Source of the DNA: an uncultured archaeon
GTDB lineage: Archaea; Iainarchaeota; Iainarchaeia; Iainarchaeales; 1-14-0-10-31-34
DNA length: 64,000 nucleotides
Assembly (NCBI GenBank): GCA_964608675.1
Contig: CAZSOZ010000003.1
Span: 53,041 to 117,040, forward strand
Direction: 5' to 3'
The notes beneath the pieces were generated by a model. It saw nothing but the letters and a program-made list of their open reading frames with translations, was not told where the DNA came from and searched no databases. A program made the translations under genes and the position numbers. Position 1 is the stretch's first letter; each line of letters starts with the position of its first letter. Shown here piece after piece: positions 4,699 to 16,450 of the stretch.

Positions 4699-4734
4699 AG
4701 AATAAATACTTTTTCTTTTTATTAATTTGTTTGT

Positions 4735-5397
4735 ATGAATAAACCTTTTCTTTTTGGAGTTTCAACAGCCAACAGAGGTTTTTTACAGGATTTTTTTCGG
4801 GTTATTCACGAAAAAAATATTTCAGTTAAAGATAATATCGGAGTTGAATACACTCGTTATCATTATGACAGCCTGCCAAGAACCCAACAGGATTTTTTTT
4901 GGAAAGGGGTTATTGATTCTCTTAAAAGAAAGGGGTTCAAGGAAATTGTTTTTCTTGACGACCATAAAACAAGAATGCAAATTGATGCAGTTCATGAAAA
5001 AGGCCGTCCTTTAACTGAAAAAGAAGCAGAACTTGTTTTTGAAAGAGAAAAAATTTTTAAACAAAGGTTTTCTGATTGCAGGGCAGGAATTTTAGGTGCA
5101 GCACATGCATTAAATTTAAAGCAGGACCTTAAAGCCAATGTTTATTTGGATTCTATTTCTTTTTTAATGCATTCAAAAAATTTGATTCCTCTTAATGCAA
5201 TTGATTTGCTTGATAAAAGAAAAAGTCTTGCAAGATATTTTGTTGTGCAGGATATTTTGTCTGGAAAAATCAGGCTTCAAAAAGGTTTTGTTAAAGTGAC
5301 TAAAATAAAAACAAAAAAGAAATCCACAAAAAAAAAATTTAAGAGAAGAAGAAAGCCGGCAAAAACTATTTTAAATCAGAGAAGAAAACCTAAATAA
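4735..5397 (+). CDS. Hypothetical protein with Lys/Arg-rich C-terminal tail
   Basis: 220-aa ORF filling the gap between htpX and mtnP; no recognised family; tail KTKKKSTKKKFKRRRKPAK. Confidence 0.65.
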   Translation: MNKPFLFGVSTANRGFLQDFFRVIHEKNISVKDNIGVEYTRYHYDSLPRTQQDFFWKGVIDSLKRKGFKEIVFLDDHKTRMQIDAVHEKGRPLTEKEAELVFEREKIFKQRFSDCRAGILGAAHALNLKQDLKANVYLDSISFLMHSKNLIPLNAIDLLDKRKSLARYFVVQDILSGKIRLQKGFVKVTKIKTKKKSTKKKFKRRRKPAKTILNQRRKPK

Positions 5398-6166
5398 AAG
5401 CGTTTTTTAGTGCGTGCCTGCATTCACAGTCTTTTTGTGTGTCTATTATTGGAACAACTTTTTTGATTAATTGCTTTAATTTTTTACTGTTTTCTTTCAT
5501 TATTTTGAGAACGCTTTCCACGTTTACAGGAGTTTTTTTCCATACATCATAATCGGTTATTGTTGCAATTGAAGCATAACAAATTTCTGCTTCTCTTGCC
5601 AGAACTGTTTCTGGAACCAAAGTCATTCCAATTACATCTGCATTCCATTTTCTAAAAAGCATGCTTTCTGCTTTGGTTGAAAACCTTGGGCCTTCAATTA
5701 CAATGCAGGTTCCTTTTTCATGAAAACCAAATTTTAGTTCTTTTGCTGATTGAATCAATTTTTTTCTTAAATCAGAGCAGAATGGTTCTGCAACAGAAAT
5801 ATGACATACTTTGTTTTTGTCGTAAAAAGTCTGCTGTCTTTTTGTGGTTTTGTCTATGAATTGGTCAACAAAAACAAATTCTCCTGGCTTAAATTTTTCT
5901 TTCAGGCTTCCTACTGCTGATGAAGCCAGAATTTTTTTTGCTCCAATTTCTTTTAGTGCTTTAATGTTTGCACGATAATTCACGTTTGTGGGGTTGATTG
6001 TATGTTTTGTTCCGTGCCTTGAAAGCAATGCAACTTTTTTTCCTGATATTTCTCCGATTTTAATTGTGCTTGAAGGTTCGCCGAATTCAGTTGAAATTTT
6101 TTTTTCTTCTTTTAATTTAAATAAATCAGGGTCTTCAAATCCTGTTCCACCTATTAATCCAATCAT
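5390..6166 (-). CDS. mtnP: S-methyl-5'-thioadenosine phosphorylase
   Basis: IGLIGGTG, RHGTKH, NYRANIKAL, EGPRFSTKAES, GMTLVPE, ITDYD motifs. Confidence 0.93.
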   Translation of the reverse strand: MIGLIGGTGFEDPDLFKLKEEKKISTEFGEPSSTIKIGEISGKKVALLSRHGTKHTINPTNVNYRANIKALKEIGAKKILASSAVGSLKEKFKPGEFVFVDQFIDKTTKRQQTFYDKNKVCHISVAEPFCSDLRKKLIQSAKELKFGFHEKGTCIVIEGPRFSTKAESMLFRKWNADVIGMTLVPETVLAREAEICYASIATITDYDVWKKTPVNVESVLKIMKENSKKLKQLIKKVVPIIDTQKDCECRHALKNAFI

Positions 6167-6173
6167 TTTTTTT

Positions 6174-6695
6174 TCACTCTGAACTGTAATTAATTAAAGA
6201 AAAAACTTTGTAGGGCTTTAATTTTTTTCTTCCTTTCAAAAAACTTAATTCAATTAAAAAACAAAATCCAATTATTTTTCCGCCGGCTTTTTCAATTAAT
6301 TCTGCTGTTGCTTTTGCTGTGCCTCCTGTTGCCAGCAAATCATCTACAATTAAAACGTTCTCGTTTTTTTTTACTGCATCCAAATGCATTTCAAGTTTGT
6401 CTTTTCCATATTCTTTTTGATAGCTTGCTTTTTGTGTTTTAAAAGGAAGTTTTCCAGGTTTTCTTATTGGAATAAAAGATGCATTTAATTTGTATGCAAT
6501 TATTGCTCCAAAAATGAATCCTCTTGCTTCTGTTCCTGCCACTACATTAATTTTTTTGTTTTTGAAGGGCTCCAGCATTCCTTGAACTGCTTTTTTTACT
6601 GCTTTTGGGTCTTGAAGCAATGTTGTTATGTCTTTGAATATTATTCCTTTTTTTGGAAAATTTGGAATGCTTCTGATTTTTTCTTTTAAGTACAT
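6174..6695 (-). CDS. apt: Adenine phosphoribosyltransferase
   Basis: FPKKGIIFKDITTLL, EARGFIFG, RKPGKLP, VDDLLATGGT PRPP motif. Confidence 0.95.
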   Translation of the reverse strand: MYLKEKIRSIPNFPKKGIIFKDITTLLQDPKAVKKAVQGMLEPFKNKKINVVAGTEARGFIFGAIIAYKLNASFIPIRKPGKLPFKTQKASYQKEYGKDKLEMHLDAVKKNENVLIVDDLLATGGTAKATAELIEKAGGKIIGFCFLIELSFLKGRKKLKPYKVFSLINYSSE

Positions 6696-6710
6696 TAACT
6701 CACTTTTTTT

Positions 6711-7673
6711 TTATTGTTTTATTTTTTTTCTCCAGTAATCAAGCAAATCCTGCATTGTTTTTTCAAAGGGAATTTCAGGTTTCCATCCTGTTTGTTTTCT
6801 GAATTTAGTTGAATCTCCTAATAAAATTTGCACGTCTGACGGCCTTAATCTTTTGGGGTCTTGTTTTACTTCAAATTCTATTTTGCTTATTTTTTGGAGT
6901 ATGTCAACTATTATTTGTATTTTGTATGCTTTTCCTGAAGCAATATTGTATACTTCTCCGGGAATTCCTTTTTCTGTTGCAAGCCAGTATGCTTTAACCA
7001 TGTCTCTTACGTCTGTGTAATCTCTTTTTGCTTCAAGGTTTCCTACTTTTAATACAGGTTCTTGTTCTCCTGTTTCCATTAATGCAACTTGTTTTGCAAA
7101 ATTGCTTGTAACGTATTGTTCTCCTCTTCTGGGGCCTTCATGATTAAAGGCTCTTGTTCTGATGATTTTTAATCCATAGCTTTTATTGTACTGGTAGCCA
7201 AGCAAATCCATTGCCACTTTGCTTACCCCATAAGGACTTAATGGCCTTAATGGATTGTCTTCTGTTATTGGAACTTCGTTTTCTTTTACTAATCCGTATT
7301 CTTCGCTTGAGCCTGCAATTTGAATTCTTATCTCTTTGTTGTGTTTTTTTATTGCTTCAAAAATATTTAATGGCCCGAAAATGTTTGCGTTCATTGTTTC
7401 TATTGGAGATTTCCATGAACTTGGCACAAAAGCCTGTGCAGCTAAATGAAAAATGTATTCAGGGCTGATTTCTTCTATTGTTTTGTCTACTCCATATGAA
7501 TCAGTTATGTCGCATTCTACTAAATTTATTTTTTTGTTTATTTCTTTGATGTTTGATAAGTCTTCGTTTTTTCTGTAGGTTCCGTATATTTCTCCTAATT
7601 TGTTTTCCAGAATATATTCGCTTAAATGGCTTCCTACAAAACCATTTATTCCTGTTATTAATACTTTTTTCAT
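6711..7673 (-). CDS. GDP-mannose 4,6-dehydratase / GDP-4-keto-6-deoxymannose reductase family SDR
   Basis: ITGINGFVG, HLAAQAFVPSSW, GSSEEYG, SPYGVSK, FNHEGPRRG, GNLEAKRDYTDVRD. Gmd versus Rmd cannot be resolved by eye. Confidence 0.85.
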   Translation of the reverse strand: MKKVLITGINGFVGSHLSEYILENKLGEIYGTYRKNEDLSNIKEINKKINLVECDITDSYGVDKTIEEISPEYIFHLAAQAFVPSSWKSPIETMNANIFGPLNIFEAIKKHNKEIRIQIAGSSEEYGLVKENEVPITEDNPLRPLSPYGVSKVAMDLLGYQYNKSYGLKIIRTRAFNHEGPRRGEQYVTSNFAKQVALMETGEQEPVLKVGNLEAKRDYTDVRDMVKAYWLATEKGIPGEVYNIASGKAYKIQIIVDILQKISKIEFEVKQDPKRLRPSDVQILLGDSTKFRKQTGWKPEIPFEKTMQDLLDYWRKKIKQ

Positions 7674-7691
7674 TCAACCACCTTTAAAAAA

Positions 7692-8537
7692 TTAAATTAT
7701 TCCTTTCCATTTATTTTTTGCTTTTTCGTATCTTTCTATGGTGTCTGTGGGAAACCATTGCCCGTTGTAAACATATCCGTATAATTTTCCTTCTTCGCTT
7801 AATTTTGGAAAAACTGCTTCTTCAATTAAAGAGTATCCTTTTGGAAGCATGTCAATTACTTCGGGTTTTAGAATATATGTCCCTGAATTAATTAAATTTG
7901 ATTCTGGTTTAACTGGTTTTTCTATGAATCTTTTTATTTGGTTTCCTTGCAATTCAATTACTCCAAAGTTTTTGGGGTCTTTAACTGAAGTTAATGCAAT
8001 TGTTGCATATGCATTATTTTTTTTGTGGAATGTGTGCATGTCATTCAGGTTAATGTTTGTTAGGTTGTCTCCGTTGAACATAAGAAATTCGTCAAGAAGC
8101 AAATTTTTTGCAAGCCTTAACGGCCCGCCTGTTCCTAATGGTTTTTTTTCTATAACGTATTCAATGTTCATATCCCATTTTTCTCCTGTTCCAAAGTATT
8201 CTTTGATTTGTTCTGCTTTATATCCTAAAGCCATAACTGCGTTTTTTACATGATATTTTGAAAGCAGTTCAATTACGTATTCTAAAATAGGTTTTCCTTT
8301 TATTCCAATCATTGGTTTTGGCGTATTGTTTGTCAAAGGCCTTAATCTTGTTCCTTTTCCTCCTGCTAGAATAAATGCTGTTGACAAATCAGCGCTTTGA
8401 ATTGCTTTTCTTACAAGATATTCGACTGCATGGCTTCGGTTTCTGATTTTTTGTCCGTCAATTTTTTTGTCTATTGCGTTTAGAACTCCGGAATCAATAT
8501 TAATAGTAACCCTTTCCTTTTCATTTTTTTTGTTCAT
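7692..8537 (-). CDS. Ribbon-helix-helix + sugar-phosphate nucleotidyltransferase fusion protein (copy 1, NTP signature intact)
   Basis: N-terminal ERVTINIDSGVLNAIDKKIDGQKIRNRSHAVEYLVRKAI (RHH), then LAGGKGTRLRPLTNNTPKPMI, GTGG, NGD, FIEKP; no C-terminal left-handed beta-helix. Confidence 0.88.
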   Translation of the reverse strand: MNKKNEKERVTINIDSGVLNAIDKKIDGQKIRNRSHAVEYLVRKAIQSADLSTAFILAGGKGTRLRPLTNNTPKPMIGIKGKPILEYVIELLSKYHVKNAVMALGYKAEQIKEYFGTGEKWDMNIEYVIEKKPLGTGGPLRLAKNLLLDEFLMFNGDNLTNINLNDMHTFHKKNNAYATIALTSVKDPKNFGVIELQGNQIKRFIEKPVKPESNLINSGTYILKPEVIDMLPKGYSLIEEAVFPKLSEEGKLYGYVYNGQWFPTDTIERYEKAKNKWKGII

Positions 8538-8559
8538 AATTTTTCATATTATTTATGAT
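8533..8559. promoter_or_regulatory. Putative RHH operator 1: TTCATAA-TTT-TTCATAT-TAT-TTATGAT overlapping the start codon of RHH-NTase copy 1
   Basis: Three TCATA/TATGA half-sites at 10-bp spacing; same layout as 10224-10250; lies between a TTTTAAAA TATA-like box (about 8568-8575) and the ATG. Confidence 0.7.
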
Positions 8560-8612
8560 TACATTCCTTTTAAAAATTAACCGTTGTTTTATTTTTTTTA
8601 GGTTTTTTTTGC

Positions 8613-9425
8613 ATGCTTGGAATAAGTTCTAGTTATTTTGCTTCAAGGGGTTTTTCTGTTTATGATTCAGTTCAGCAGGCGTATTCTTTGGGTTTTAAGG
8701 CAATTGAATTAGGTGCAGCGCATTCTTTTGAAGAAAATTTAAATGAAACAATCCAAAAAATTCATGACGATTTTGATGTGTTTTTTACTTTGCATGGATT
8801 GTTTCCCCCAAGAAAAGAAAAAGTCTGGTTTAATCCTTCTTTGGGTTTAACTCAAACAAATAAAGAAATTATTGATTCTTTTTTTGTTTTTGCTGAACTG
8901 GCCGGCGCAAAACTTATTGGCTTTCATCCAGGTTTTTTGTTTGAAGTTTCTTATGTTGAAAAACAGGGTTTTGGGGAAACCAAAAATTTAAGGCCTTTGG
9001 AAAAAACTGTTTCCTGGAATAATTTGTTTGATGTAATGAATTATTTTAAAGAAAAAAACAGCAATAAATTTTTTCTTGCAATTGAAAATATTACTTCAAC
9101 TGAAGAAAAAGCTTTGGTTTACGGAAAAAATTTTGAGAAAGTTTTCAGTAAATTTCCTTTTTTTGGTTTGCTTTTTGATTTAGGGCATTCTATTACAGAC
9201 AAAACTTATTCTGATTTAATGGAATTCAAAGACAAAATACAGGAAATTCATTTGCATAAACCTGAAGGAAAAAAAATCCATCTGCCTGTTTCTGAAAAAG
9301 ACCTTGAACTGCTTAAGCCAATAAAGCAAATCAATTCAATTCCTGTTATAATTGAGCATTTTAAGGGAATAACAGAAAAACAAATCCTTGAAGAAAAAGA
9401 ATTGTTTGAATCTTTTTTTGGTTAA
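8613..9425 (+). CDS. Xylose isomerase-like / AP endonuclease 2 TIM-barrel protein (sugar-phosphate isomerase/epimerase family)
   Basis: AIELG, TLHG, FHPG, LAIEN, LFDLGH, EIHLH, HLP, IIEH metal-ligand pattern. Confidence 0.8.
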   Translation: MLGISSSYFASRGFSVYDSVQQAYSLGFKAIELGAAHSFEENLNETIQKIHDDFDVFFTLHGLFPPRKEKVWFNPSLGLTQTNKEIIDSFFVFAELAGAKLIGFHPGFLFEVSYVEKQGFGETKNLRPLEKTVSWNNLFDVMNYFKEKNSNKFFLAIENITSTEEKALVYGKNFEKVFSKFPFFGLLFDLGHSITDKTYSDLMEFKDKIQEIHLHKPEGKKIHLPVSEKDLELLKPIKQINSIPVIIEHFKGITEKQILEEKELFESFFG

Positions 9426-10228
9426 ATCATTTTTTTGGCTTTTTCGTAGTCTTTTTTTGTGTTAATGTTTAAGTAGATTCCTTGGAAAGGGTATCCTGTT
9501 AGAAGTCCTTTTTTTGCAAGTTTTGGGAATAAGTCGTTTGAAATGCTTTTCATGTTTCTTGAAATGTATTTGAATATTTCAGGTTCAAAAATATAGTAGC
9601 CTGCATTAATCAGATAACTTGAAGCTTCTGTTTTTGGTTTTTCTTTGAATTCAGTTATTTTTTTTCCTTGTAATACTGCTACTCCGTAATCTTTTGGGTT
9701 GTTTACGGTTGTTAATGCAATTGTTGCAGTTGATTTGTTTGCCTGATGAAATGAAAGCATTTCATTTAAATTAAGACTGCATAATGTGTCTCCGTTTGCC
9801 ACCAGAAAAGTGTCTTTTAGCTGGTTTTTCATTCTCAGCAAAGGCTCTATTGTTCCTGATGCTTTTTCTAATTCAAGAAATTCTGCATCAATCTTTTTTT
9901 GGTTTATTTCTTGAATTATTTCTTCTTTTTCTGCATCCATGCTGACAGTAATTTTTCCTGCATTGAATTCCTGTAAATAGTTTATTACTCTTTCAATTAA
10001 TGTTTTATTATTTAATTCCAGAAGAAACCTGCTTTTTTTTCCTGTTCCTTTAATGAAATCTTTTCCTCCTGCTAAAACAATTGAATTTTTTATTTTGTAG
10101 TCTGAAAGTGTTTTGGATAAAAGGTATTCTACTGCCTGGCTTCTGCTTCTGATGCTTAATCCGTCCACTATTCTGTCTACCTGCTTTAATATATCGTCTT
10201 TTATTGTAATTGTAATTCGTTCTCTCAT
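9422..10228 (-). CDS. Ribbon-helix-helix + nucleotidyltransferase-like fusion protein (copy 2, degenerate active-site signature)
   Basis: MRERITITIKDDILKQVDRIVDGLSIRSRSQAVEYLLSK (RHH); LAGGKDFIKGTGKKSRFLL replaces GxGTRLxPxTxxxPK; NGD, FKEKP and INAGYY retained. Confidence 0.85.
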   Translation of the reverse strand: MRERITITIKDDILKQVDRIVDGLSIRSRSQAVEYLLSKTLSDYKIKNSIVLAGGKDFIKGTGKKSRFLLELNNKTLIERVINYLQEFNAGKITVSMDAEKEEIIQEINQKKIDAEFLELEKASGTIEPLLRMKNQLKDTFLVANGDTLCSLNLNEMLSFHQANKSTATIALTTVNNPKDYGVAVLQGKKITEFKEKPKTEASSYLINAGYYIFEPEIFKYISRNMKSISNDLFPKLAKKGLLTGYPFQGIYLNINTKKDYEKAKKMI

Positions 10229-10250
10229 ACTTTCTCATACTATGTATGAG
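10224..10250. promoter_or_regulatory. Putative RHH operator 2: CTCATAC-TTT-CTCATAC-TAT-GTATGAG overlapping the start codon of RHH-NTase copy 2
   Basis: Perfect 7-bp direct repeat plus perfect 7-bp inverted repeat; TATA-like TTTTAAAA at 10260-10267; lies in the divergent promoter with ugd. Confidence 0.78.
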
Positions 10251-10319
10251 TCATTCTTATTTTAAAATCTTTTTATGCCATTTTACTTTATTGTTTATTT
10301 TTTTTGGGAAGTGATTTTT

Positions 10320-11585
10320 TTGAAGATTTCTGTTATTGGAACAGGTTATGTTGGACTAATTTCAGGCACAGGTCTTGCTTTGAATGGCCATCAAATTGTC
10401 TGTATTGACAGCAATAAAGAAAAAGTTGATTTAATTAACAGTAAAGTTCCTCCTATTTTTGAAAAAGGCCTTAAGGAAGCCTTGAATAAAATTGTTCCTG
10501 ACAGGCTTTCTGCTTCATCTGATTTAAAAAAAGCTGTTTTGGATTCTGATGTTTCTTTTGTTTGTGTTGGAACTCCGTGCAGTAAAGAAGGAAAATGCGA
10601 TTTGACTGCAGTTGAATCTGTTGTAAAGGAAATTGCTTTGGCTTTAAAGGAAAAGACTTCTTTTCATACAATTGTAATTAAGAGCACTGTTGTTCCTTCC
10701 ACTACTGAAAAACTTGTTTTGCCTTTGCTTGAAGAATTTTCAGGAAAAAAGCTGGGAGAGTTTGGCTTGTGTATGAATCCTGAAACTTTAAGGGAAGGTT
10801 TTGCTTTAGAGGATTTTTTGAATCCTGACAGAATTATTCTTGGAATTCAGGATGATAAAACCAGAAAAGCAATGAAGGAAGTTTATTCTTCTTTTTCTTC
10901 TCCTAAATTTTTTTGCGGTTTTTCTGAAGCTGAAATGATTAAATATGCTTCCAATTCCTTGCTTGCAGCAAAAATTTCTTTTATTAATGAAATCGGAAAC
11001 ATCTGCAAGAAACTTGAAATAAATACTTATACTGTTGCTGAAGGAGTTGGATTAGACAAAAGGATTTCCCCTCATTTTTTGAATGCAGGAATAGGTTTTG
11101 GCGGAAGCTGTTTTCCTAAAGATGTTTCTGCTTTGATTGCAAAAGGAAATGAACTTAATATTGAAACTTTTTTGTTGGATTCTGTAATGAAAGTGAATGA
11201 TTTTCAGCCTAAAATTTTTTTGGATTTAATTAAATCTAAAACAGAATTAAAAGAAAAAAAAGTTGGTGTTTTGGGGCTTGCGTTTAAGGCAGGAACTGAT
11301 GATATAAGGGAAAGTCGTTCTATTCCTGTAATTAAAATGCTTTTGGATGAAGAAGCAGAAATTCTGGCTTTTGATCCTCAGGCTGAAGAAAACATGAAAA
11401 AAGAGTTTCCTGAAATTTCTTATTTTGATTCTGCTCAAAAAACAGTTGATGAAAGCGATTTAGTTTTGATTTTAACTGAATGGAGCGAATTTTCTTTTCT
11501 TGAATTTAAAAACAAGCCGGTTTTTGATGCAAGAAACATTTTTAAGAATAATAAACCCAAAAACTATGAAGGGCTGTCTTGGTGA
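10320..11585 (+). CDS. ugd: UDP-glucose/GDP-mannose 6-dehydrogenase
   Basis: KISVIGTGYVG, CVGTP, IKSTV, GFGGSCFPKD catalytic Cys, GLAFKAGTDDIRES. Start moved to TTG 10320 after a GAAGTGA RBS. Confidence 0.92.
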   Translation: MKISVIGTGYVGLISGTGLALNGHQIVCIDSNKEKVDLINSKVPPIFEKGLKEALNKIVPDRLSASSDLKKAVLDSDVSFVCVGTPCSKEGKCDLTAVESVVKEIALALKEKTSFHTIVIKSTVVPSTTEKLVLPLLEEFSGKKLGEFGLCMNPETLREGFALEDFLNPDRIILGIQDDKTRKAMKEVYSSFSSPKFFCGFSEAEMIKYASNSLLAAKISFINEIGNICKKLEINTYTVAEGVGLDKRISPHFLNAGIGFGGSCFPKDVSALIAKGNELNIETFLLDSVMKVNDFQPKIFLDLIKSKTELKEKKVGVLGLAFKAGTDDIRESRSIPVIKMLLDEEAEILAFDPQAEENMKKEFPEISYFDSAQKTVDESDLVLILTEWSEFSFLEFKNKPVFDARNIFKNNKPKNYEGLSW

Positions 11586-11592
11586 TGTTTGA

Positions 11593-12477
11593 ATGAGTGA
11601 AGAAATTAAACCTGTAAAAAAAGCTGTTATTCCTGCTGCAGGGCTTGGAACAAGGTTTCTGCCTGCAAGCAAGGCTGTTCCAAAGGAAATGTTTCCTGTT
11701 GTTGACAAGCCTGCAATCCAGTATATTATTGAAGAAGCAGTTGATTCAGGAATAGAAGACATTATTATTGTGACAGGAAAAGACAAAACTGCTATTGAAG
11801 ATCATTTTGACAGAGTTCCTGAATTGTATTCAAAGCTTGAAGAAAAAGGAAAGAAAGACTGGCTTTTAATGCTTGAAAAAATTGATGGTTTGGCTGACAT
11901 TCATTTTATCCGTCAGAAAGAGCCTTTGGGTTTGGGTCATGCAGTTTTGTGTGCCAAAAAACATATTGGAAACGAGCCTTTTGCTGTGCTTCTTGGAGAC
12001 GATTTAATTTTGTCTGATAAACCTGCTTTAAAGAAATTAATTAATATTTATGAAAAAAATGATTCTTCTGTTTTGTGTGTTCAAAATGTTCCCAAAAAAG
12101 AAATTCCTTTGTATGGAGTAATTAAATACAAAAAAGTTAACGGACAAATTGTTGTTGAAAACATGGTTGAAAAACCTCCTATAAGCAAGGCTCCTTCAAG
12201 TCTGGCTATTGTTGGAAGATATTTATTGAAGCCTGAAATTTTTGGGATTCTTGAAGAAATTCCTTTTGGCAAAGGAAAGGAACTTCAGTTAACTGATGCT
12301 TTAAGGATTTTGAATGAAATTGACAAACTAATGGCTTATGAAATTGATGACGGAAAATGGCTTACTGTTGGAGACAAAACAAGTTATTTGAAGGCCAACT
12401 TAGAGTTTGCTTTAAAGAGAGCTGAAATGAGAAAGGACATTCTTTTGTTTATTAAGGAAATAAACAAGAGAGTTTAA
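11593..12477 (+). CDS. galU: UTP--glucose-1-phosphate uridylyltransferase
   Basis: KAVIPAAGLGTRFLPASKAVPKEM, RQKEPLGLGHAV, LLGDD, VEKP, ELQLTDAL. Confidence 0.95.
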   Translation: MSEEIKPVKKAVIPAAGLGTRFLPASKAVPKEMFPVVDKPAIQYIIEEAVDSGIEDIIIVTGKDKTAIEDHFDRVPELYSKLEEKGKKDWLLMLEKIDGLADIHFIRQKEPLGLGHAVLCAKKHIGNEPFAVLLGDDLILSDKPALKKLINIYEKNDSSVLCVQNVPKKEIPLYGVIKYKKVNGQIVVENMVEKPPISKAPSSLAIVGRYLLKPEIFGILEEIPFGKGKELQLTDALRILNEIDKLMAYEIDDGKWLTVGDKTSYLKANLEFALKRAEMRKDILLFIKEINKRV

Positions 12478-12492
12478 TTAAGGTTTTTTTTT

Positions 12493-13425
12493 ATGATTAA
12501 AGTTTTGGTTTCCGGTGGAGCAGGTTTTATTGGAAGCCATTTATGTGACAAATTAATTGAAGAAAAAAAAGAAGTTTTTTGTATTGACAGTCTTGTTTCA
12601 GGAACAAAAAAAAACATTCAGCATTTAATGAAAAACAGTAATTTTCATTTTTTAGAACAAGATGTAAACAAACTTGTTTTTGAAGAAAAAGTTAATGAAG
12701 TTTTTCATTTGGCTTCTTTGGCTTCTCCTGCTGACTATTTTTCTAAGCCAATTGACACAATGCTTGTGGGTTCAATTGGAACAAAAAATTTGTTGGATTT
12801 GGCTTTGAAGAACAAAGCAAAATTTTTGTTTACTTCTACTTCTGAAGTTTACGGAGATCCTTTGGTTCATCCTCAAAAAGAATCTTATTGGGGGAACGTT
12901 AATCCGATTGGAAAGCGTTCTTGTTATGATGAATCAAAGCGTTTTTCTGAAGCTTTAATTAAGGCTTTTGAAAGAGAATTTGAATTCAAGGGAAAAATTG
13001 TAAGAATTTTTAATACTTACGGCTCAAGAATGAGAATAAACGATGGAAGAATTGTCCCTAATTTTATTAATCAGGCTTTAAACAATAAGCCTTTGACTGT
13101 TTATGGTTCAGGAAAGCAGACAAGAAGTTTTTGTTTTGTTTCTGACATGATTGACGGAATAATTAAAATGATGAATTCTAATTTAACTGGTCCAATTAAT
13201 CTTGGAAACCCTGAAGAGTATTCTGTTTTGGAGTTTGCAGAAAAAATTAAGAAAGCAAGCGGAAAAGAACTTGAAATAAAATTTTTGTCTGCTTTGGAGG
13301 ATGACCCTAAACAAAGAAAACCTGATATTTCTCTTGCAAGAAAAAAACTTAATTGGAATCCTGAATTTTCTTTGGATGAAGGATTAAAAATTACTTTGGA
13401 TTATTTCCGTAAGGCTAATCTTTAA
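12493..13425 (+). CDS. UDP-glucuronate decarboxylase (UDP-xylose synthase) family
   Basis: GGAGFIGSHL, HLASLASP, TSTSEVYGDP, YWGNVNPIGKRSCYDESKR, RIFNTYG, DDPKQRKPDI. Confidence 0.92.
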   Translation: MIKVLVSGGAGFIGSHLCDKLIEEKKEVFCIDSLVSGTKKNIQHLMKNSNFHFLEQDVNKLVFEEKVNEVFHLASLASPADYFSKPIDTMLVGSIGTKNLLDLALKNKAKFLFTSTSEVYGDPLVHPQKESYWGNVNPIGKRSCYDESKRFSEALIKAFEREFEFKGKIVRIFNTYGSRMRINDGRIVPNFINQALNNKPLTVYGSGKQTRSFCFVSDMIDGIIKMMNSNLTGPINLGNPEEYSVLEFAEKIKKASGKELEIKFLSALEDDPKQRKPDISLARKKLNWNPEFSLDEGLKITLDYFRKANL

Positions 13426-13458
13426 TTGTGTTTTGTTAATTATTTTTATTGATTAAAA

Positions 13459-13923
13459 ATGATTGAAGGAATTAAAATAAAAAAATTAAAGAGAATTGAT
13501 GACGAAAGAGGTTATTTAATGGAAATTTTAAGGAATGATGACGAAATTTTTGAGGAATTTGGTCAGGCTTACATTACTTGTGTTAAGCCTGATTACGTTA
13601 AAGGCTGGCATATGCATGAACATCAGACAGACCATTTTGTGTGTGTTAAAGGAAACGCAAGAGTTGTTTTGTGCGATAAAAGAGAAAACTCAAAAACTTT
13701 TAATGAAGTAAATGAATTCATTTTAGGAGAAAAAGAAGAAAACAGAATTTTATTAAAGATTCCAAAAAAAGTAATGCATGGCTTTGAGTCTGCTGACAGC
13801 AAAGAAGCTTTGATTTTAAATTTTCCAACCAAAACATATAATTATGATGACCCTGATGAAATAAGGCTTCCTTTTAATTCAAAAGAAATTGATTTTGAAT
13901 GGAAAGCAAAAAAAGGCGGTTGA
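13459..13923 (+). CDS. rfbC: dTDP-4-dehydrorhamnose 3,5-epimerase family cupin
   Basis: DERGYLMEI, VKGWHMH, HGF; adjacent to rfbB/rfbD/rfbA-like genes. Confidence 0.85.
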   Translation: MIEGIKIKKLKRIDDERGYLMEILRNDDEIFEEFGQAYITCVKPDYVKGWHMHEHQTDHFVCVKGNARVVLCDKRENSKTFNEVNEFILGEKEENRILLKIPKKVMHGFESADSKEALILNFPTKTYNYDDPDEIRLPFNSKEIDFEWKAKKGG

Positions 13924-14880
13924 ATGAATTTACTTGTAACAGGCGGAGCAGGATTCATTGGAAGCAATTTCATTAAACGCTTTATTGAATTTTATCCTGA
14001 AGCAAGAATAGTTAATTTAGATAAATTAACTTATGCCGGCAGGCTTGAAAACTTAAAAGAACTTGAAGGCAACAAAAATTACAAGTTCATTAAAGGAGAC
14101 ATTTGCAATAAAAAAACAGTTCAAAAAGCAGTTAAAGGAATTGATATAATAATTAATTTTGCTGCTGAATCTCATGTTGACCGTTCAATTGTTTCTCCTG
14201 AAGACTTCATTAAAACAGATGTTTTTGGAACTTTTGTTTTATTAGAGGAAGCAAGAAAAAATGATTTGCAGGTAATTCAGATTTCAACAGATGAAGTTTA
14301 TGGAAGCATCGAAAACGGTTTTTTTACTGAAGAAAGCCCTTTAATGCCTTCTTCTCCTTATTCTGCTTCCAAGGCTGGAGCAGACAGACTGTGTTTTTCT
14401 TATTTCAAAACTTATGGTTTGAATGTAAAAATAACCCGTTCTTCCAATAATTTTGGTTCAAACCAGTTTCCAGAAAAATTAATTCCTTTATTTATTACAA
14501 ACCTTTTGGAAGAAAAAAAAGTTCCGGTGTATGGAGACGGAAAAAATGTAAGGGACTGGATTTTTGTTAAAGACAACTGTGATGCAATAATTAAAGTAAT
14601 GAATAAAGGAGAAAAAGGGGAAACTTATAATATTGGGGGCGAAAACGAAAAAACTAATTTAGAAATAACTGAATTCATTTTAAATGAATTAGGAAAAGGA
14701 AATGAATTCATTGAATTTGTTGAAGACAGAAAAGGACATGATTTAAGGTATGCTTTGGATTGCACTAAAATAAAAAAACTTGGCTTTAAGCCAAATCATT
14801 CTTTTGATGATGCGTTAAAGGAAACAATTAATTGGTATAAAAATAATTTTTGGTGGTGGAAGCCATTAAAGAAAAACTGA
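13924..14880 (+). CDS. rfbB: dTDP-glucose 4,6-dehydratase
   Basis: DKLTYAG, FAAESHVDRSI, ISTDEVYGS, SPYSASKAG, QFPEKLIP, DRKGHDLRY. Confidence 0.95.
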   Translation: MNLLVTGGAGFIGSNFIKRFIEFYPEARIVNLDKLTYAGRLENLKELEGNKNYKFIKGDICNKKTVQKAVKGIDIIINFAAESHVDRSIVSPEDFIKTDVFGTFVLLEEARKNDLQVIQISTDEVYGSIENGFFTEESPLMPSSPYSASKAGADRLCFSYFKTYGLNVKITRSSNNFGSNQFPEKLIPLFITNLLEEKKVPVYGDGKNVRDWIFVKDNCDAIIKVMNKGEKGETYNIGGENEKTNLEITEFILNELGKGNEFIEFVEDRKGHDLRYALDCTKIKKLGFKPNHSFDDALKETINWYKNNFWWWKPLKKN

Positions 14881-15731
14881 TTTTTTTAATCGGCAAAGGT
14901 TTTCTTGGAACAAAAATTGTTTCTGTTTTCAAAGAAAAAGGAATCAAAGTTATTACTGCAGGCCTTGAAGAAAAAAATGATTATTCTTTGGATATAACTG
15001 ACGAACAATCTTTGATTTATTTGTTTAAAGACTTGAATCCTGATATTGTTTTGTTGCCTGCTGGAATAACAAATGTTGACTATTGTGAAGCAGAACAAGA
15101 AAAAGCAATAGAAGTCAATATTGAGGGAACAAGAAATGTTGTTGATGCATGCCGTGCTTTTAATTCAAAATTAGTTTTTTTTTCAACTGATTATGTTTTT
15201 GACGGAAAAAAAGGAAATTACACAGAAAAAAACAAAGTTAATCCAATTAATTTTTACGGCAAAACAAAAGTTAAAGGAGAACAGTTTGTTAAAGGATTAG
15301 AAGATTATTTGATTGCAAGAGTTTCTGCTTTATATGGCTTTAATTCAAATAAAGACAAAAACACTTTTGTAAGATATGCAGTTAATGAATTAAAGCAGGG
15401 AAACCAAATTACTGCAGTTAAATTAATTAACTGCCCTACTTTAATTGATGATGTTGCTGAAGCAGTTTTTTTTATGCTTGAAAAAAATTTTTCTGGATTA
15501 TTTCATGTTGCAGGATGTGATTCTTGCTCCAAATATGATTTGCTTAAAAAAATCTGCAAGGTTTACGGTTTTGATTCATGCCAAATAAAAGAAGTTTTGT
15601 CGATTCCTAAATGGAAAGCTCAAAGGCCTGAAAACACTTCTCTTGATACAACTAAAATTCAACTGCAAGGAATTAAAATGAGTTCGGTGGAAGAAGGTTT
15701 ATTGAAAATGAAGGAGCAAATGAAATTATGA
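14850..15731 (+). CDS. rfbD: dTDP-4-dehydrorhamnose reductase family
   Basis: TNVDYCE, FSTDYVFDG, NFYGKTK, PTLIDDVA, AQRPENTSLD; exact start uncertain. Confidence 0.88.
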   Translation: MVVEAIKEKLIFLIGKGFLGTKIVSVFKEKGIKVITAGLEEKNDYSLDITDEQSLIYLFKDLNPDIVLLPAGITNVDYCEAEQEKAIEVNIEGTRNVVDACRAFNSKLVFFSTDYVFDGKKGNYTEKNKVNPINFYGKTKVKGEQFVKGLEDYLIARVSALYGFNSNKDKNTFVRYAVNELKQGNQITAVKLINCPTLIDDVAEAVFFMLEKNFSGLFHVAGCDSCSKYDLLKKICKVYGFDSCQIKEVLSIPKWKAQRPENTSLDTTKIQLQGIKMSSVEEGLLKMKEQMKL

Positions 15732-16450
15732 AAGGAGTAATTCTTGCTGGAGGAACCGGTTCAAGGCTTTTTCCTTTAACTAAAATTACAAACAAGCATT
15801 TGCTTCCAGTTTATAGTAAACCTATGATTTATTTTCCTATTGAAACTTTGCTTGATGCAGGAATAAAAGATATTTTGATTGTTTCAGGAAAAGAGCATGC
15901 AGGAGATTTTTTGAAGCTTTTGGGTTCAGGGAAAGAATTTAATGCAAGATTTACTTATGAAGTGCAGGAGGAAGCCGGAGGAATAGCCCAAGCATTGTCT
16001 TTGGCTGAAGATTTTGCTGACAAAGAAAAAATTGTTGTTGTTTTAGGAGACAACATTATTGAAGATTCAATAAAGGAACAAGCAAAAGAATTCCAGAAAA
16101 CTGATTCTGCTTTCATTTTTTTAAAAGAAGTCTCTGATGCACAAAGATTTGGTGTTCCTGAATTAAATGGAAAAAAAGTTCTTTCAATTGAAGAAAAACC
16201 CAAAAAACCTAAGAGCAGTTTTGCTGTCACAGGAATTTACATGTATCCTCCTGAAGTGTTTAAAGTAATCAAAAATTTGAAGCCGTCTGCAAGAGGAGAA
16301 TTTGAAATAACTGATGTAAATAATTATTTTATTAGGAAAGGAAAACTTAAAGCAAATTTTTTGCAGGGTTTTTGGACTGATGCAGGAACATTTGAATCCC
16401 TGTTTCGTGCAACAAAACTAGTTAAAGAAAAACTTCATAACTCTGAGTAA
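15728..16450 (+). CDS. rfbA: Glucose-1-phosphate thymidylyltransferase (RfbA/SpsI-like, short form)
   Basis: KGVILAGGTGSRLFPLTKITNKHLLPVY, LGDN, EEKP, SARGEFEITD, WTDAGT. Confidence 0.88.
   Translation: MKGVILAGGTGSRLFPLTKITNKHLLPVYSKPMIYFPIETLLDAGIKDILIVSGKEHAGDFLKLLGSGKEFNARFTYEVQEEAGGIAQALSLAEDFADKEKIVVVLGDNIIEDSIKEQAKEFQKTDSAFIFLKEVSDAQRFGVPELNGKKVLSIEEKPKKPKSSFAVTGIYMYPPEVFKVIKNLKPSARGEFEITDVNNYFIRKGKLKANFLQGFWTDAGTFESLFRATKLVKEKLHNSE

Follow-up and report, generated by a model that had tools for sequence, protein, structure and literature searches.

Ribbon-helix-helix (RHH) domains are double-stranded-DNA binders, and many archaeal repressors act between the TATA-like box and the start, where they block polymerase recruitment. 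To our knowledge, a ligand, an operator or a regulon has been established for very few DPANN transcription factors. The closest described relative of the system considered here is the metal sensor NikR, in which an N-terminal RHH domain is joined to a C-terminal oligomerising ligand-binding domain; its operator in E. coli is given (PMC7055735) as GTATGA-N16-TCATAC. A second point of reference is GMPPA, a non-catalytic paralogue of GDP-mannose pyrophosphorylase, which is reported to bind GDP-mannose and to control GMPPB (PMC11228364). Here we analyse a stretch of 64,000 nucleotides from an uncultured archaeon of the Iainarchaeota (hereafter the window; assembly GCA_964608675.1, contig CAZSOZ010000003.1, positions 53,041 to 117,040 of the forward strand), which holds two genes, copy 1 and copy 2, each fusing an RHH domain to the fold of a sugar nucleotidyltransferase. 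A first-pass annotation of this DNA had read both proteins as one-component regulators or trigger enzymes. The evidence set out below, all of it in silico (the RHH profile and model, the conserved fusion, a NikR-type operator and the gene linkage), supports that view, every check able to overturn it having come out in its favour, and we give a probability of about 0.7 to the reading that both copies are NikR-like one-component regulators with a nucleotide-sugar pyrophosphorylase fold where NikR has its metal sensor.

Architecture and family of the two fusion proteins

The two genes are the following:

7692..8537, minus strand: copy 1, 281 amino acids (aa); RHH domain at about residues 7-50 (nucleotides about 8388-8519), then an NTP_transferase domain
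9422..10228, minus strand: copy 2, 268 aa; RHH domain at about residues 2-45 (nucleotides about 10094-10225), then an NTP_transferase-like domain

The claim that a pair of paralogous RHH-nucleotidyltransferase fusions lies here is borne out by the open reading frames (ORFs), by the identity between the two proteins (37% over 269 columns, E 8e-58) and by Pfam. The NTP_transferase family (PF00483) matches copy 1 with E 1.1e-44 and copy 2 with E 2.9e-24, the match beginning near residue 50-60, and when the full protein is scanned it is the sole Pfam domain detected in the 268 aa of copy 2. The N-terminal motifs that had been read from the translations are also found, as RVTINI and RSHAVEYL in copy 1 and as RITITI and RSQAVEYL in copy 2.

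That the N-terminus is an RHH domain is upheld by sequence profile and by model alike. When the N-termini (49-54 residues) are compared in isolation with Pfam RHH_1, copy 2 matches with E 2.7e-4 and 21.2 bits, over the 20.5-bit cut-off, and an NCBIfam scan aligns its residues 3-47 to the start of NikR. A profile of 24 family N-termini finds NikR: its RHH domain is matched with E 7.7e-6 in the E. coli protein (residues 2-44) and with E 1.6e-3 in that of P. horikoshii, and weaker matches are to an RHH antitoxin and to CopG. The AlphaFold model of copy 1 (predicted local distance difference test, pLDDT, 89.5) and that of the isolated domain (pLDDT 66.9) both show an extended N-terminal strand followed by helices 16-25 and 34-47. 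With the domain model as query, the top ranks in Foldseek are all RHH proteins, NikR first and then Rv0298, ArtA, CdbA and Arc, and the NikR superpositions have a root mean square deviation of 1.3-2.1 Å over 41-44 residues, among them one of 1.7 Å over 43. The beta-alpha-alpha unit of about 45 residues that defines the class is present in both copies, with copy 1 below the RHH_1 cut-off. Dimerisation, with the paired strands as the DNA-reading sheet, would be expected of such a domain; a two-chain prediction of the copy 1 homodimer scores 0.41 against a mark of 0.42 and counts neither for nor against it.

The likeness to NikR extends to the residues that would read the DNA. The N-terminal consensus of a 22-sequence family alignment is MKERVTLTLD..L...D..VDG.KIRNRSHAVE.LL.KAL, and its strongest conservation falls, as in NikR, on the DNA-contacting strand and on the N-R-S opening of helix B. 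The NikR strand QRVTITL has the same R-x-T-x-T pattern as the family, which reads RVTITI in the clade of copy 2, RITITI in copy 2 itself and RVTINI in copy 1. The tetramerisation domain that defines NikR proper, NikR_C (PF08753), has no match in copy 1, in copy 2 or in the whole genome, so the fusion proteins are NikR-like and not members of that family. A toxin-antitoxin module was considered and rejected, there being no toxin partner and the RHH domain being fused to an enzyme fold.

The architecture is widespread. Copy 1 as query matches at least 120 clusters; those listed all span 95-100% of the query, are 274-315 aa long and are spread over Micrarchaeota, Diapherotrites, Nano- and Woesearchaeota, Altiarchaeota and one Asgard archaeon. 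When an N-terminal profile of 57 positions is set against longer proteins, at least 4110 clusters match at E <= 1e-6, and PF00483 is present in 119 of the 120 listed. In the window's own phylum the profile is found in 49 of 201 sampled genomes (23 of the 58 of high quality), and in the window's family in 8 of 8, where two such genes often lie some 2 kb from each other. The fusion, which this profile search finds kept in thousands of protein clusters of other genomes, is, as judged from sequence, a large, unnamed, mostly archaeal family.

Two further observations concern its range. On a contig labelled Candidatus Berkelbacteria (locus L025), an RHH fusion 48% identical to copy 1 is adjoined by trigger factor and ClpP, so the fusion seems to occur in at least one bacterium of the candidate phyla radiation, by transfer or by mis-binning. 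Tandem pairs of one canonical and one degenerate RHH-nucleotidyltransferase are present elsewhere (L013, 4897-5667 and 5992-6843; L120, 6001-6870 and 6867-7682), and pairs of enzyme and sensor may have arisen more than once.

Full-text searches of the literature, outside subscription-only papers and supplementary files, returned no description of an RHH domain fused to a sugar nucleotidyltransferase or pyrophosphorylase. The literature searched likewise holds no archaeal regulator of nucleotide-sugar supply with this architecture, in agreement with the first-pass annotation, which knew of no characterised regulator so built. RHH one-component regulators and trigger enzymes are known as a kind; the version built on the nucleotidyltransferase fold brings a predicted operator, a predicted regulon and a shortlist of ligands.

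The operator-like site and its conservation

Both genes are preceded, on the gene strand, by the tripartite sequence TCATA-N5-TATGA-N5-TATGA, that is, by three 5-bp half-sites at 10-bp spacing, which in both cases sits between a TATA-like box and the start codon:

8534..8558, minus strand: candidate operator of copy 1, tripartite; the last half-site includes the start codon (8535-8537)
8566..8579, no strand assigned: TATA-like A+T-rich element CCTTTTAAAAATTA, about 10 bp upstream of the copy-1 operator
10225..10249, minus strand: candidate operator of copy 2, tripartite; the last half-site includes the start codon (10226-10228)
10256..10269, no strand assigned: TATA-like A+T-rich element CTTATTTTAAAATC, between the copy-2 operator and ugd

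The core of the copy-2 operator is a 17-bp perfect palindrome, CTCATAC-N3-GTATGAG (10234-10250). Across the family the right half-site is mostly GTATGA, partnered by TCATAC in copy 2 and in several orthologues, and this hexamer GTATGA/TCATAC is identical to the half-site of E. coli NikR. The site thus has the repeated or palindromic half-sites, placed in the gene's own promoter, that are expected of an RHH operator, binding itself being a prediction. Given that the genome has no NikR_C match and, in an RHH_1 scan at E <= 0.01, no match other than copy 2, the fusion proteins are the obvious binders. A NikR regulon was rejected on two grounds, the lack of NikR_C in the genome and the different spacing of the half-sites. 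We take CCTTTTAAAAATTA, which lies in the 75-bp intergenic region between copy 1 and a divergent TIM-barrel gene, and CTTATTTTAAAATC to be putative promoter elements; the latter may serve both divergent promoters, that of copy 2 and that of ugd.

In the window, TCATA-N5-TATGA is observed twice against 0.09 expected, both times directly upstream of the two copies. The full tripartite site has exactly 2 perfect matches and no one-mismatch match in the 1.2-Mb genome; since the motif was derived from these two sites, they are true by construction, and what really tests the motif is therefore whether it is absent elsewhere and conserved in other genomes.

Conservation was assessed, by eye, in 20 further family-gene promoter regions of the same phylum, 4 of which duplicate loci L008 and L009. 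At positions -26 to -12 from the ATG the palindrome is exact in 10, has one mismatch in 6 and two mismatches in 1, and in the remaining 3 it lies further upstream. The spacers between the half-sites vary from promoter to promoter, and spacers that vary freely between constant half-sites are the signature of a footprint. A TATA-like box (e.g. CTTTAAATA) stands about 10 nt upstream of the palindrome, a layout kept in the orthologous promoters. Of the 12 intergenic regions between ugd and copy-2-type genes of other genera and families, all 12 hold the palindrome, 9 of them exactly and 3 with a single mismatch, and a third TATGA usually comes after it. Among distant copy-1-type loci from other phyla, an exact TCATA-N5-TCATA/TATGA pair occurs in 5 of 18, as compared with 1 of 1394 background windows; these pairs have the 10-bp spacing and mostly form a direct repeat just upstream of a TATA-like box.

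In four loci (L115, L118, L113 and L116) a distance of 40-75 nt separates the site from the coding start of the regulator downstream, and the third TATGA of the site opens a short upstream ORF; in L115 there is no canonical in-frame start codon directly before the RDRV strand. The 5' leader of these four loci may have a role of its own.

A wider regulon in this genome was rejected as unsupported: the additional palindromes lie near unrelated genes, and when up to 2 mismatches are allowed the tripartite site has 6 matches, fewer than the 15-21 of shuffled genomes. Only one other palindrome, TCATACAAAGTATGA on contig C2 (31824-31838, L003), has the C...G inner flanks of the copy-2 site; it lies 41 bp upstream of the quinolinate synthase gene (NadA), has no third half-site, and may be either chance or an extra target. 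It should also be noted that contig C1 carries a full-length 1-deoxy-D-xylulose 5-phosphate (DXP) reductoisomerase (232978-234138; L001 254-1414, minus strand; three Pfam domains, E about 1e-43), a bacterial-type enzyme of isoprenoid precursor synthesis that is unexpected for an archaeon, and contig C7 a transketolase/DXP-synthase-like gene.

Catalytic residues, gene linkage and alternative explanations

The two copies differ in the residues on which catalysis depends, the roles of the loop arginine, the lysine and the aspartate being those known from RmlA and GlmU. The signature loop of PF00483 is intact in copy 1, GGKGTRLRPLT...PKP (GGKGTRLRPLTNNTPKP), which also has GTGG, NGD and EKP. In copy 2 the loop is shortened and degenerate (GGKD--FIKGTGKKSRF), with GTIEP standing for GTGGP and YLNIN for WFDxG. 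The last metal aspartate (WxDxG) is shifted by two positions in copy 1 (WFPTDT), as it is in close orthologues, and is absent from copy 2 (YLNINT). On the signature loop copy 1 can be filed as a member enzyme of the PF00483 class and copy 2 as a relative of the fold only.

For copy 1, the nearest solved structures are GDP-mannose pyrophosphorylases (VTC1 and GMPPB, 33-34% identity), the GMPPA/GMPPB complex being among the closest, and the next are tlr0611, MurU and RmlA; the E values of this structural comparison go down to 1e-24. Its best NCBIfam matches are mannose-1-phosphate guanylyltransferases, under the equivalog cut-offs. The genome, which is 94% complete, has four PF00483 genes, all in the window (rmlA, galU, copy 1 and copy 2), and one phosphosugar mutase, outside it. 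With only four such genes, copy 1 is the sole candidate for nucleoside diphosphate (NDP) sugars beyond UDP-glucose and dTDP-glucose. It is thus probably an active NDP-sugar pyrophosphorylase making GDP-mannose, and looks like a trigger enzyme, with predicted catalysis and operator binding in one polypeptide.

Copy 2, by comparison, looks like a non-catalytic pseudoenzyme that has become a dedicated ligand sensor and regulator, its putative catalytic loss being read from the residues just described. The competing explanation for it is that both copies are DNA-binding trigger enzymes and that copy 2 is still active with an unusual loop, perhaps on another nucleotide or sugar. Copy 2 does retain LAGG, GT, NGD and EKP, with basic residues after the short loop (GKKSRF), and has a weak MobA-like match over residues 48-148, and the loop of the L009 orthologue still reads GGKDSRMFPLT..KPKF. 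However, in an alignment of 15 copy-2-type rows (A3, counted by eye), 13 have a loop deletion of 2-3 residues with loss of the GxGTR arginine, and the WxD aspartate has become asparagine in all 15; the loops vary freely among orthologues while the RHH domain is almost invariant. Continued catalysis by copy 2 is, in our judgement, unlikely. What the copy-2-type rows conserve are blocks lining the pocket, namely SGTI.P, YGDT, ATIALTTVSNPKDYGV, QKP and NAGYFLFEPEIF.

The same contrast is seen on a larger scale. Among 144 full-length matches to copy 2 (6 fragments of less than 225 aa having been dropped), GGxG[TSE]R and the lysine are kept in 6 of the 127 that bear an RHH domain and in 10 of the 17 that do not (Fisher p 1.5e-7), in a survey that is biased to degenerate forms, the query being the degenerate copy 2. 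Of the 127 representatives with an RHH domain, 118 retain the GD aspartate and 106 the EKP lysine. Between orthologues of copy 2, conservation is higher in the RHH domain than in the enzyme fold (0.84 vs 0.75; 0.78 vs 0.62), whereas between orthologues of copy 1 it is higher in the enzyme fold than in the RHH domain (0.85 vs 0.78; 0.71 vs 0.58).

The neighbours of the two genes in the window are:

5390-6166, minus strand: methylthioadenosine phosphorylase (MTAP), co-directional with copy 1
6174-6695, minus strand: adenine phosphoribosyltransferase (apt), co-directional with copy 1
6711-7673, minus strand: gmd-like short-chain dehydrogenase/reductase (SDR) of the NDP-sugar 4,6-dehydratase family, the first gene after copy 1
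8613..9425, plus strand: xylose-isomerase-like TIM-barrel gene, divergent from copy 1 and convergent with copy 2 (4-bp overlap)
10275..16450, plus strand: sugar-nucleotide operon ugd, galU, SDR, rmlC-like, rmlB, rmlD, rmlA, divergent from copy 2

The co-directional run announced after copy 1 is there, with intergenic gaps of 7-18 bp (5390..7673, minus strand), and so is the divergent ugd-galU-rml run beside copy 2; the names GDP-sugar SDR (6711-7673) and uxs (12493-13425) remain unconfirmed, both SDRs falling below every NCBIfam cut-off. In L008 and L009 the order SDR-apt-MTAP after the copy-1-type gene is identical to that of the window. The TIM-barrel gene has an AP_endonuc_2 match and a weak CbiR-like match, and shares the operator region of copy 1; by tblastn it lies near the copy-2-type regulator in 7 of 15 loci, including L108, L111, L115, L116, L008 and L009, and may be a member of the regulon.

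The longest ugd ORF begins at ATG 10275, and a Shine-Dalgarno-like stretch, GGGAAGTGA, precedes a TTG or GTG near 10311-10320. Given that the Pfam NAD-binding match begins only at residue 17, the true start of ugd is probably about 45 nt downstream of that ATG, which would make the region shared with copy 2 about 90 bp long. A search for RNA sequencing runs that hold positions 7600-10400 listed none, a result that bears neither way on expression.

The link to sugar-nucleotide genes, one of the points on which the first-pass annotation staked its reading, holds in other genomes. By tblastn with the window proteins, ugd is divergently adjacent to the copy-2-type regulator in 15 of 15 loci (12 from other genomes at 49-57% identity to copy 2, with the window, L008 and L009), tblastn also covering L109, L110 and L115, in which the central gene is masked in ORF calling; Pfam confirms the divergent ugd in 9 of these loci, and a galU-like gene usually comes next after ugd. 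A phosphosugar mutase (phosphoglucomutase/phosphomannomutase, PGM/PMM) is found downstream of the copy-1-type gene in 13 of 20 loci, as the next gene in 10 of them and no more than three genes away in the other 3. Distant family members (<=31% identity) adjoin a DegT aminotransferase, an NDP-sugar dehydratase and glycosyltransferases. Five copy-1-type loci, L014, L016, L022, L024 and L028, have as divergent neighbour (about 4700-5900, minus strand) a bacterial-type glpX fructose-1,6-bisphosphatase (FBPase), followed by aldolase and GAPDH-like genes; this suggests a place for some members of the family where gluconeogenesis and sugar activation part. As for the proposed control of a glycan cluster, the promoters of the two genes themselves and of their divergent neighbours carry the site; the glycan cluster as a whole is not part of a detectable regulon.

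An alternative reading is that both proteins are plain metabolic enzymes in which the RHH-like segment is an oligomerisation or stability module and the palindrome is bound by another factor or is a promoter element. Copy 1, with its loop, NGD and EKP and as the genome's sole candidate for its reaction, fits this account; copy-1-type genes usually share an operon with a phosphosugar mutase, much like manB/manC pairs, and the databases name the listed family members as nucleotidyltransferases or enzymes only. Such an account is nevertheless improbable, given that the most conserved N-terminal residues are those of the DNA-contacting strand and helix-B N-R-S of NikR, that the conserved half-site is that of NikR, that the genome offers no other RHH_1 protein (E <= 0.01) or NikR_C to bind it, and that most of copy 2's RHH-bearing relatives show a decayed catalytic loop beside an RHH domain that has not decayed. 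Action of the site at the RNA level, with the proteins or a palindrome hairpin controlling translation initiation, finds some footing in the third half-site, which overlaps the ATG in family f1, and in the palindrome, which could form a hairpin if transcribed, but is very unlikely, as in other genomes the site and its TATA-like box stand 40-640 nt upstream of the coding start, distant members have the half-site pair upstream of the TATA-like box, RHH domains are known to bind double-stranded DNA, and transcription would be expected to start 22-27 nt past the TATA-like box, inside the site, leaving the full hairpin untranscribed.

The reading of both copies as NikR-like regulators has its own difficulties, and the following weigh against it. 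The N-terminus of copy 1 alone reaches only E 0.016 and 15.6 bits against RHH_1, under the 20.5-bit cut-off, and Foldseek with the RHH-domain model (pLDDT 66.9) gives no match at E <= 1e-3, the best being E 0.1. The genomic motif count is circular for the two window sites, as explained above, and five more TCATA-N5-TATGA sites lie near unrelated genes, e.g. NadA, DXR, GAPDH, GDH and transketolase, 4 of the 5 having A/T-only spacers. Among the distant loci, 13 of 18 have no exact half-site pair. Perfect inverted repeats within 50 nt of the start, taken at their longest in each region, have arms that average 5.5 in 22 targets and 4.46 in 166 controls (Mann-Whitney p 0.0017), with arms of at least 6 bp in 9 of 22 targets and 32 of 166 controls and of at least 7 bp in 5 of 22 and 8 of 166, so that the general enrichment is moderate only; L023, which has no confident start and is absent from one palindrome listing, enters this test and the distant-locus test with start 6007. 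Many of the genomes compared are related, and the counts overstate independence. Copy 2 retains NGD and EKP along with its weak MobA-like match, so residual or altered catalysis is possible, and the bias of the loop survey bears on the same point. Finally, the ligand is a guess from gene context.

Proposed mechanism and comparison with known systems

From the architecture, the site and the linkage we infer DNA binding, the direction of regulation, the identity of the ligand and the oligomer state. In the mechanism that we propose, RHH dimers would insert their R-x-T-x-T/N beta-strands into the TATGA-type half-sites, and an oligomer joined by the enzyme-fold domains would span the three half-sites. 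Given that these are one helical turn apart and lie between the TATA-like box and the start, the bound oligomer would block recruitment of RNA polymerase, and autorepression would result; the divergent promoters would be influenced as well, that of ugd-galU-rml by copy 2 and that of the TIM-barrel gene by copy 1. Binding of a nucleotide, a sugar-1-phosphate or an NDP-sugar in the enzyme-fold pocket would then change geometry or oligomer state, and with it the occupancy of the operator. Copy 1 would both regulate and work as an NDP-sugar pyrophosphorylase, with GDP-mannose as its most likely product. Copy 2 would be a pseudoenzyme that keeps the pocket as a sensor; because of its fixed pairing with ugd-galU, its most likely ligand would be UDP-glucose or UDP-glucuronate.

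At somewhat less than even odds, we extend this reading from the pair to a widespread and unrecognised family of archaeal transcription factors, in which the pyrophosphorylase fold serves as the sensor of a NikR-like RHH repressor and enzyme and pseudoenzyme forms, possibly in mixed oligomers, read TATGA-type operators. If true, NDP-sugar pools would be wired to the transcription of ugd-galU and PMM and, in some lineages, of the gluconeogenic glpX FBPase, and this could be the main control over the supply of cell-surface glycan precursors in the small, regulator-poor genomes of DPANN archaea. The side-by-side pair in the window would then show in one place how an enzyme turned first into a trigger enzyme and then into a dedicated sensor, and plain enzyme, RHH-fused active enzyme and RHH-fused pseudoenzyme would form a natural series for the study of that evolution. 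What is at hand is a testable package: a family of thousands, a predicted operator that matches the RHH-DNA code of NikR, a small predicted regulon and a set of candidate ligands. Sugar-nucleotide-responsive repressors with short operators are also possible biosensor parts.

NikR (PDB 1q5v, 2hzv, 2bj1) comes nearest in sequence to the N-terminal domain, with the same R-x-T-x-T strand and the same half-site, and its overall logic is the same. The differences lie in what is attached and how the DNA is laid out: a nucleotidyltransferase fold of about 225 residues in place of the ACT-like, nickel-binding NikR_C domain, a tripartite array with 10-bp spacing in place of inverted repeats separated by N16, and a sugar nucleotide in place of a metal as the presumed ligand. 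For the enzyme half, GMPPA and GMPPB make a non-catalytic and active pair like the one predicted for copy 2 and copy 1, and GDP-mannose pyrophosphorylases are the closest solved folds to copy 1; the series from copy 1 to copy 2 would parallel this eukaryotic solution to sugar-nucleotide homeostasis. GalF and GalU are likewise a known pair of non-catalytic and catalytic NDP-sugar pyrophosphorylase paralogues. However, GMPPA and GalF work through contacts between proteins and lack a DNA-binding domain, whereas copy 2 carries an RHH domain, and GMPPA and GMPPB have a C-terminal left-handed beta-helix domain that is absent from both copies; without it, the resemblance of copy 2 to GMPPA-type paralogues is one of analogy only.

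As polypeptides that combine an enzyme with a DNA-binding domain and regulate their own pathway, the two copies can be placed beside PutA, which has an RHH domain, BirA, and NadR, which joins a DNA-binding domain to a nucleotidyltransferase. These three are bacterial and belong to other enzyme folds and pathways, NadR pairing a helix-turn-helix domain with NMN adenylyltransferase, and none senses NDP-sugars. The regulators of the TrmB family are archaeal one-component proteins in which binding of a sugar metabolite tunes promoter occupancy near the TATA box or transcription start, as would be the case here; they do so, however, with a winged helix-turn-helix and an unrelated sugar-binding domain, and in response to free sugars in place of the activated sugars proposed for copy 1 and copy 2.

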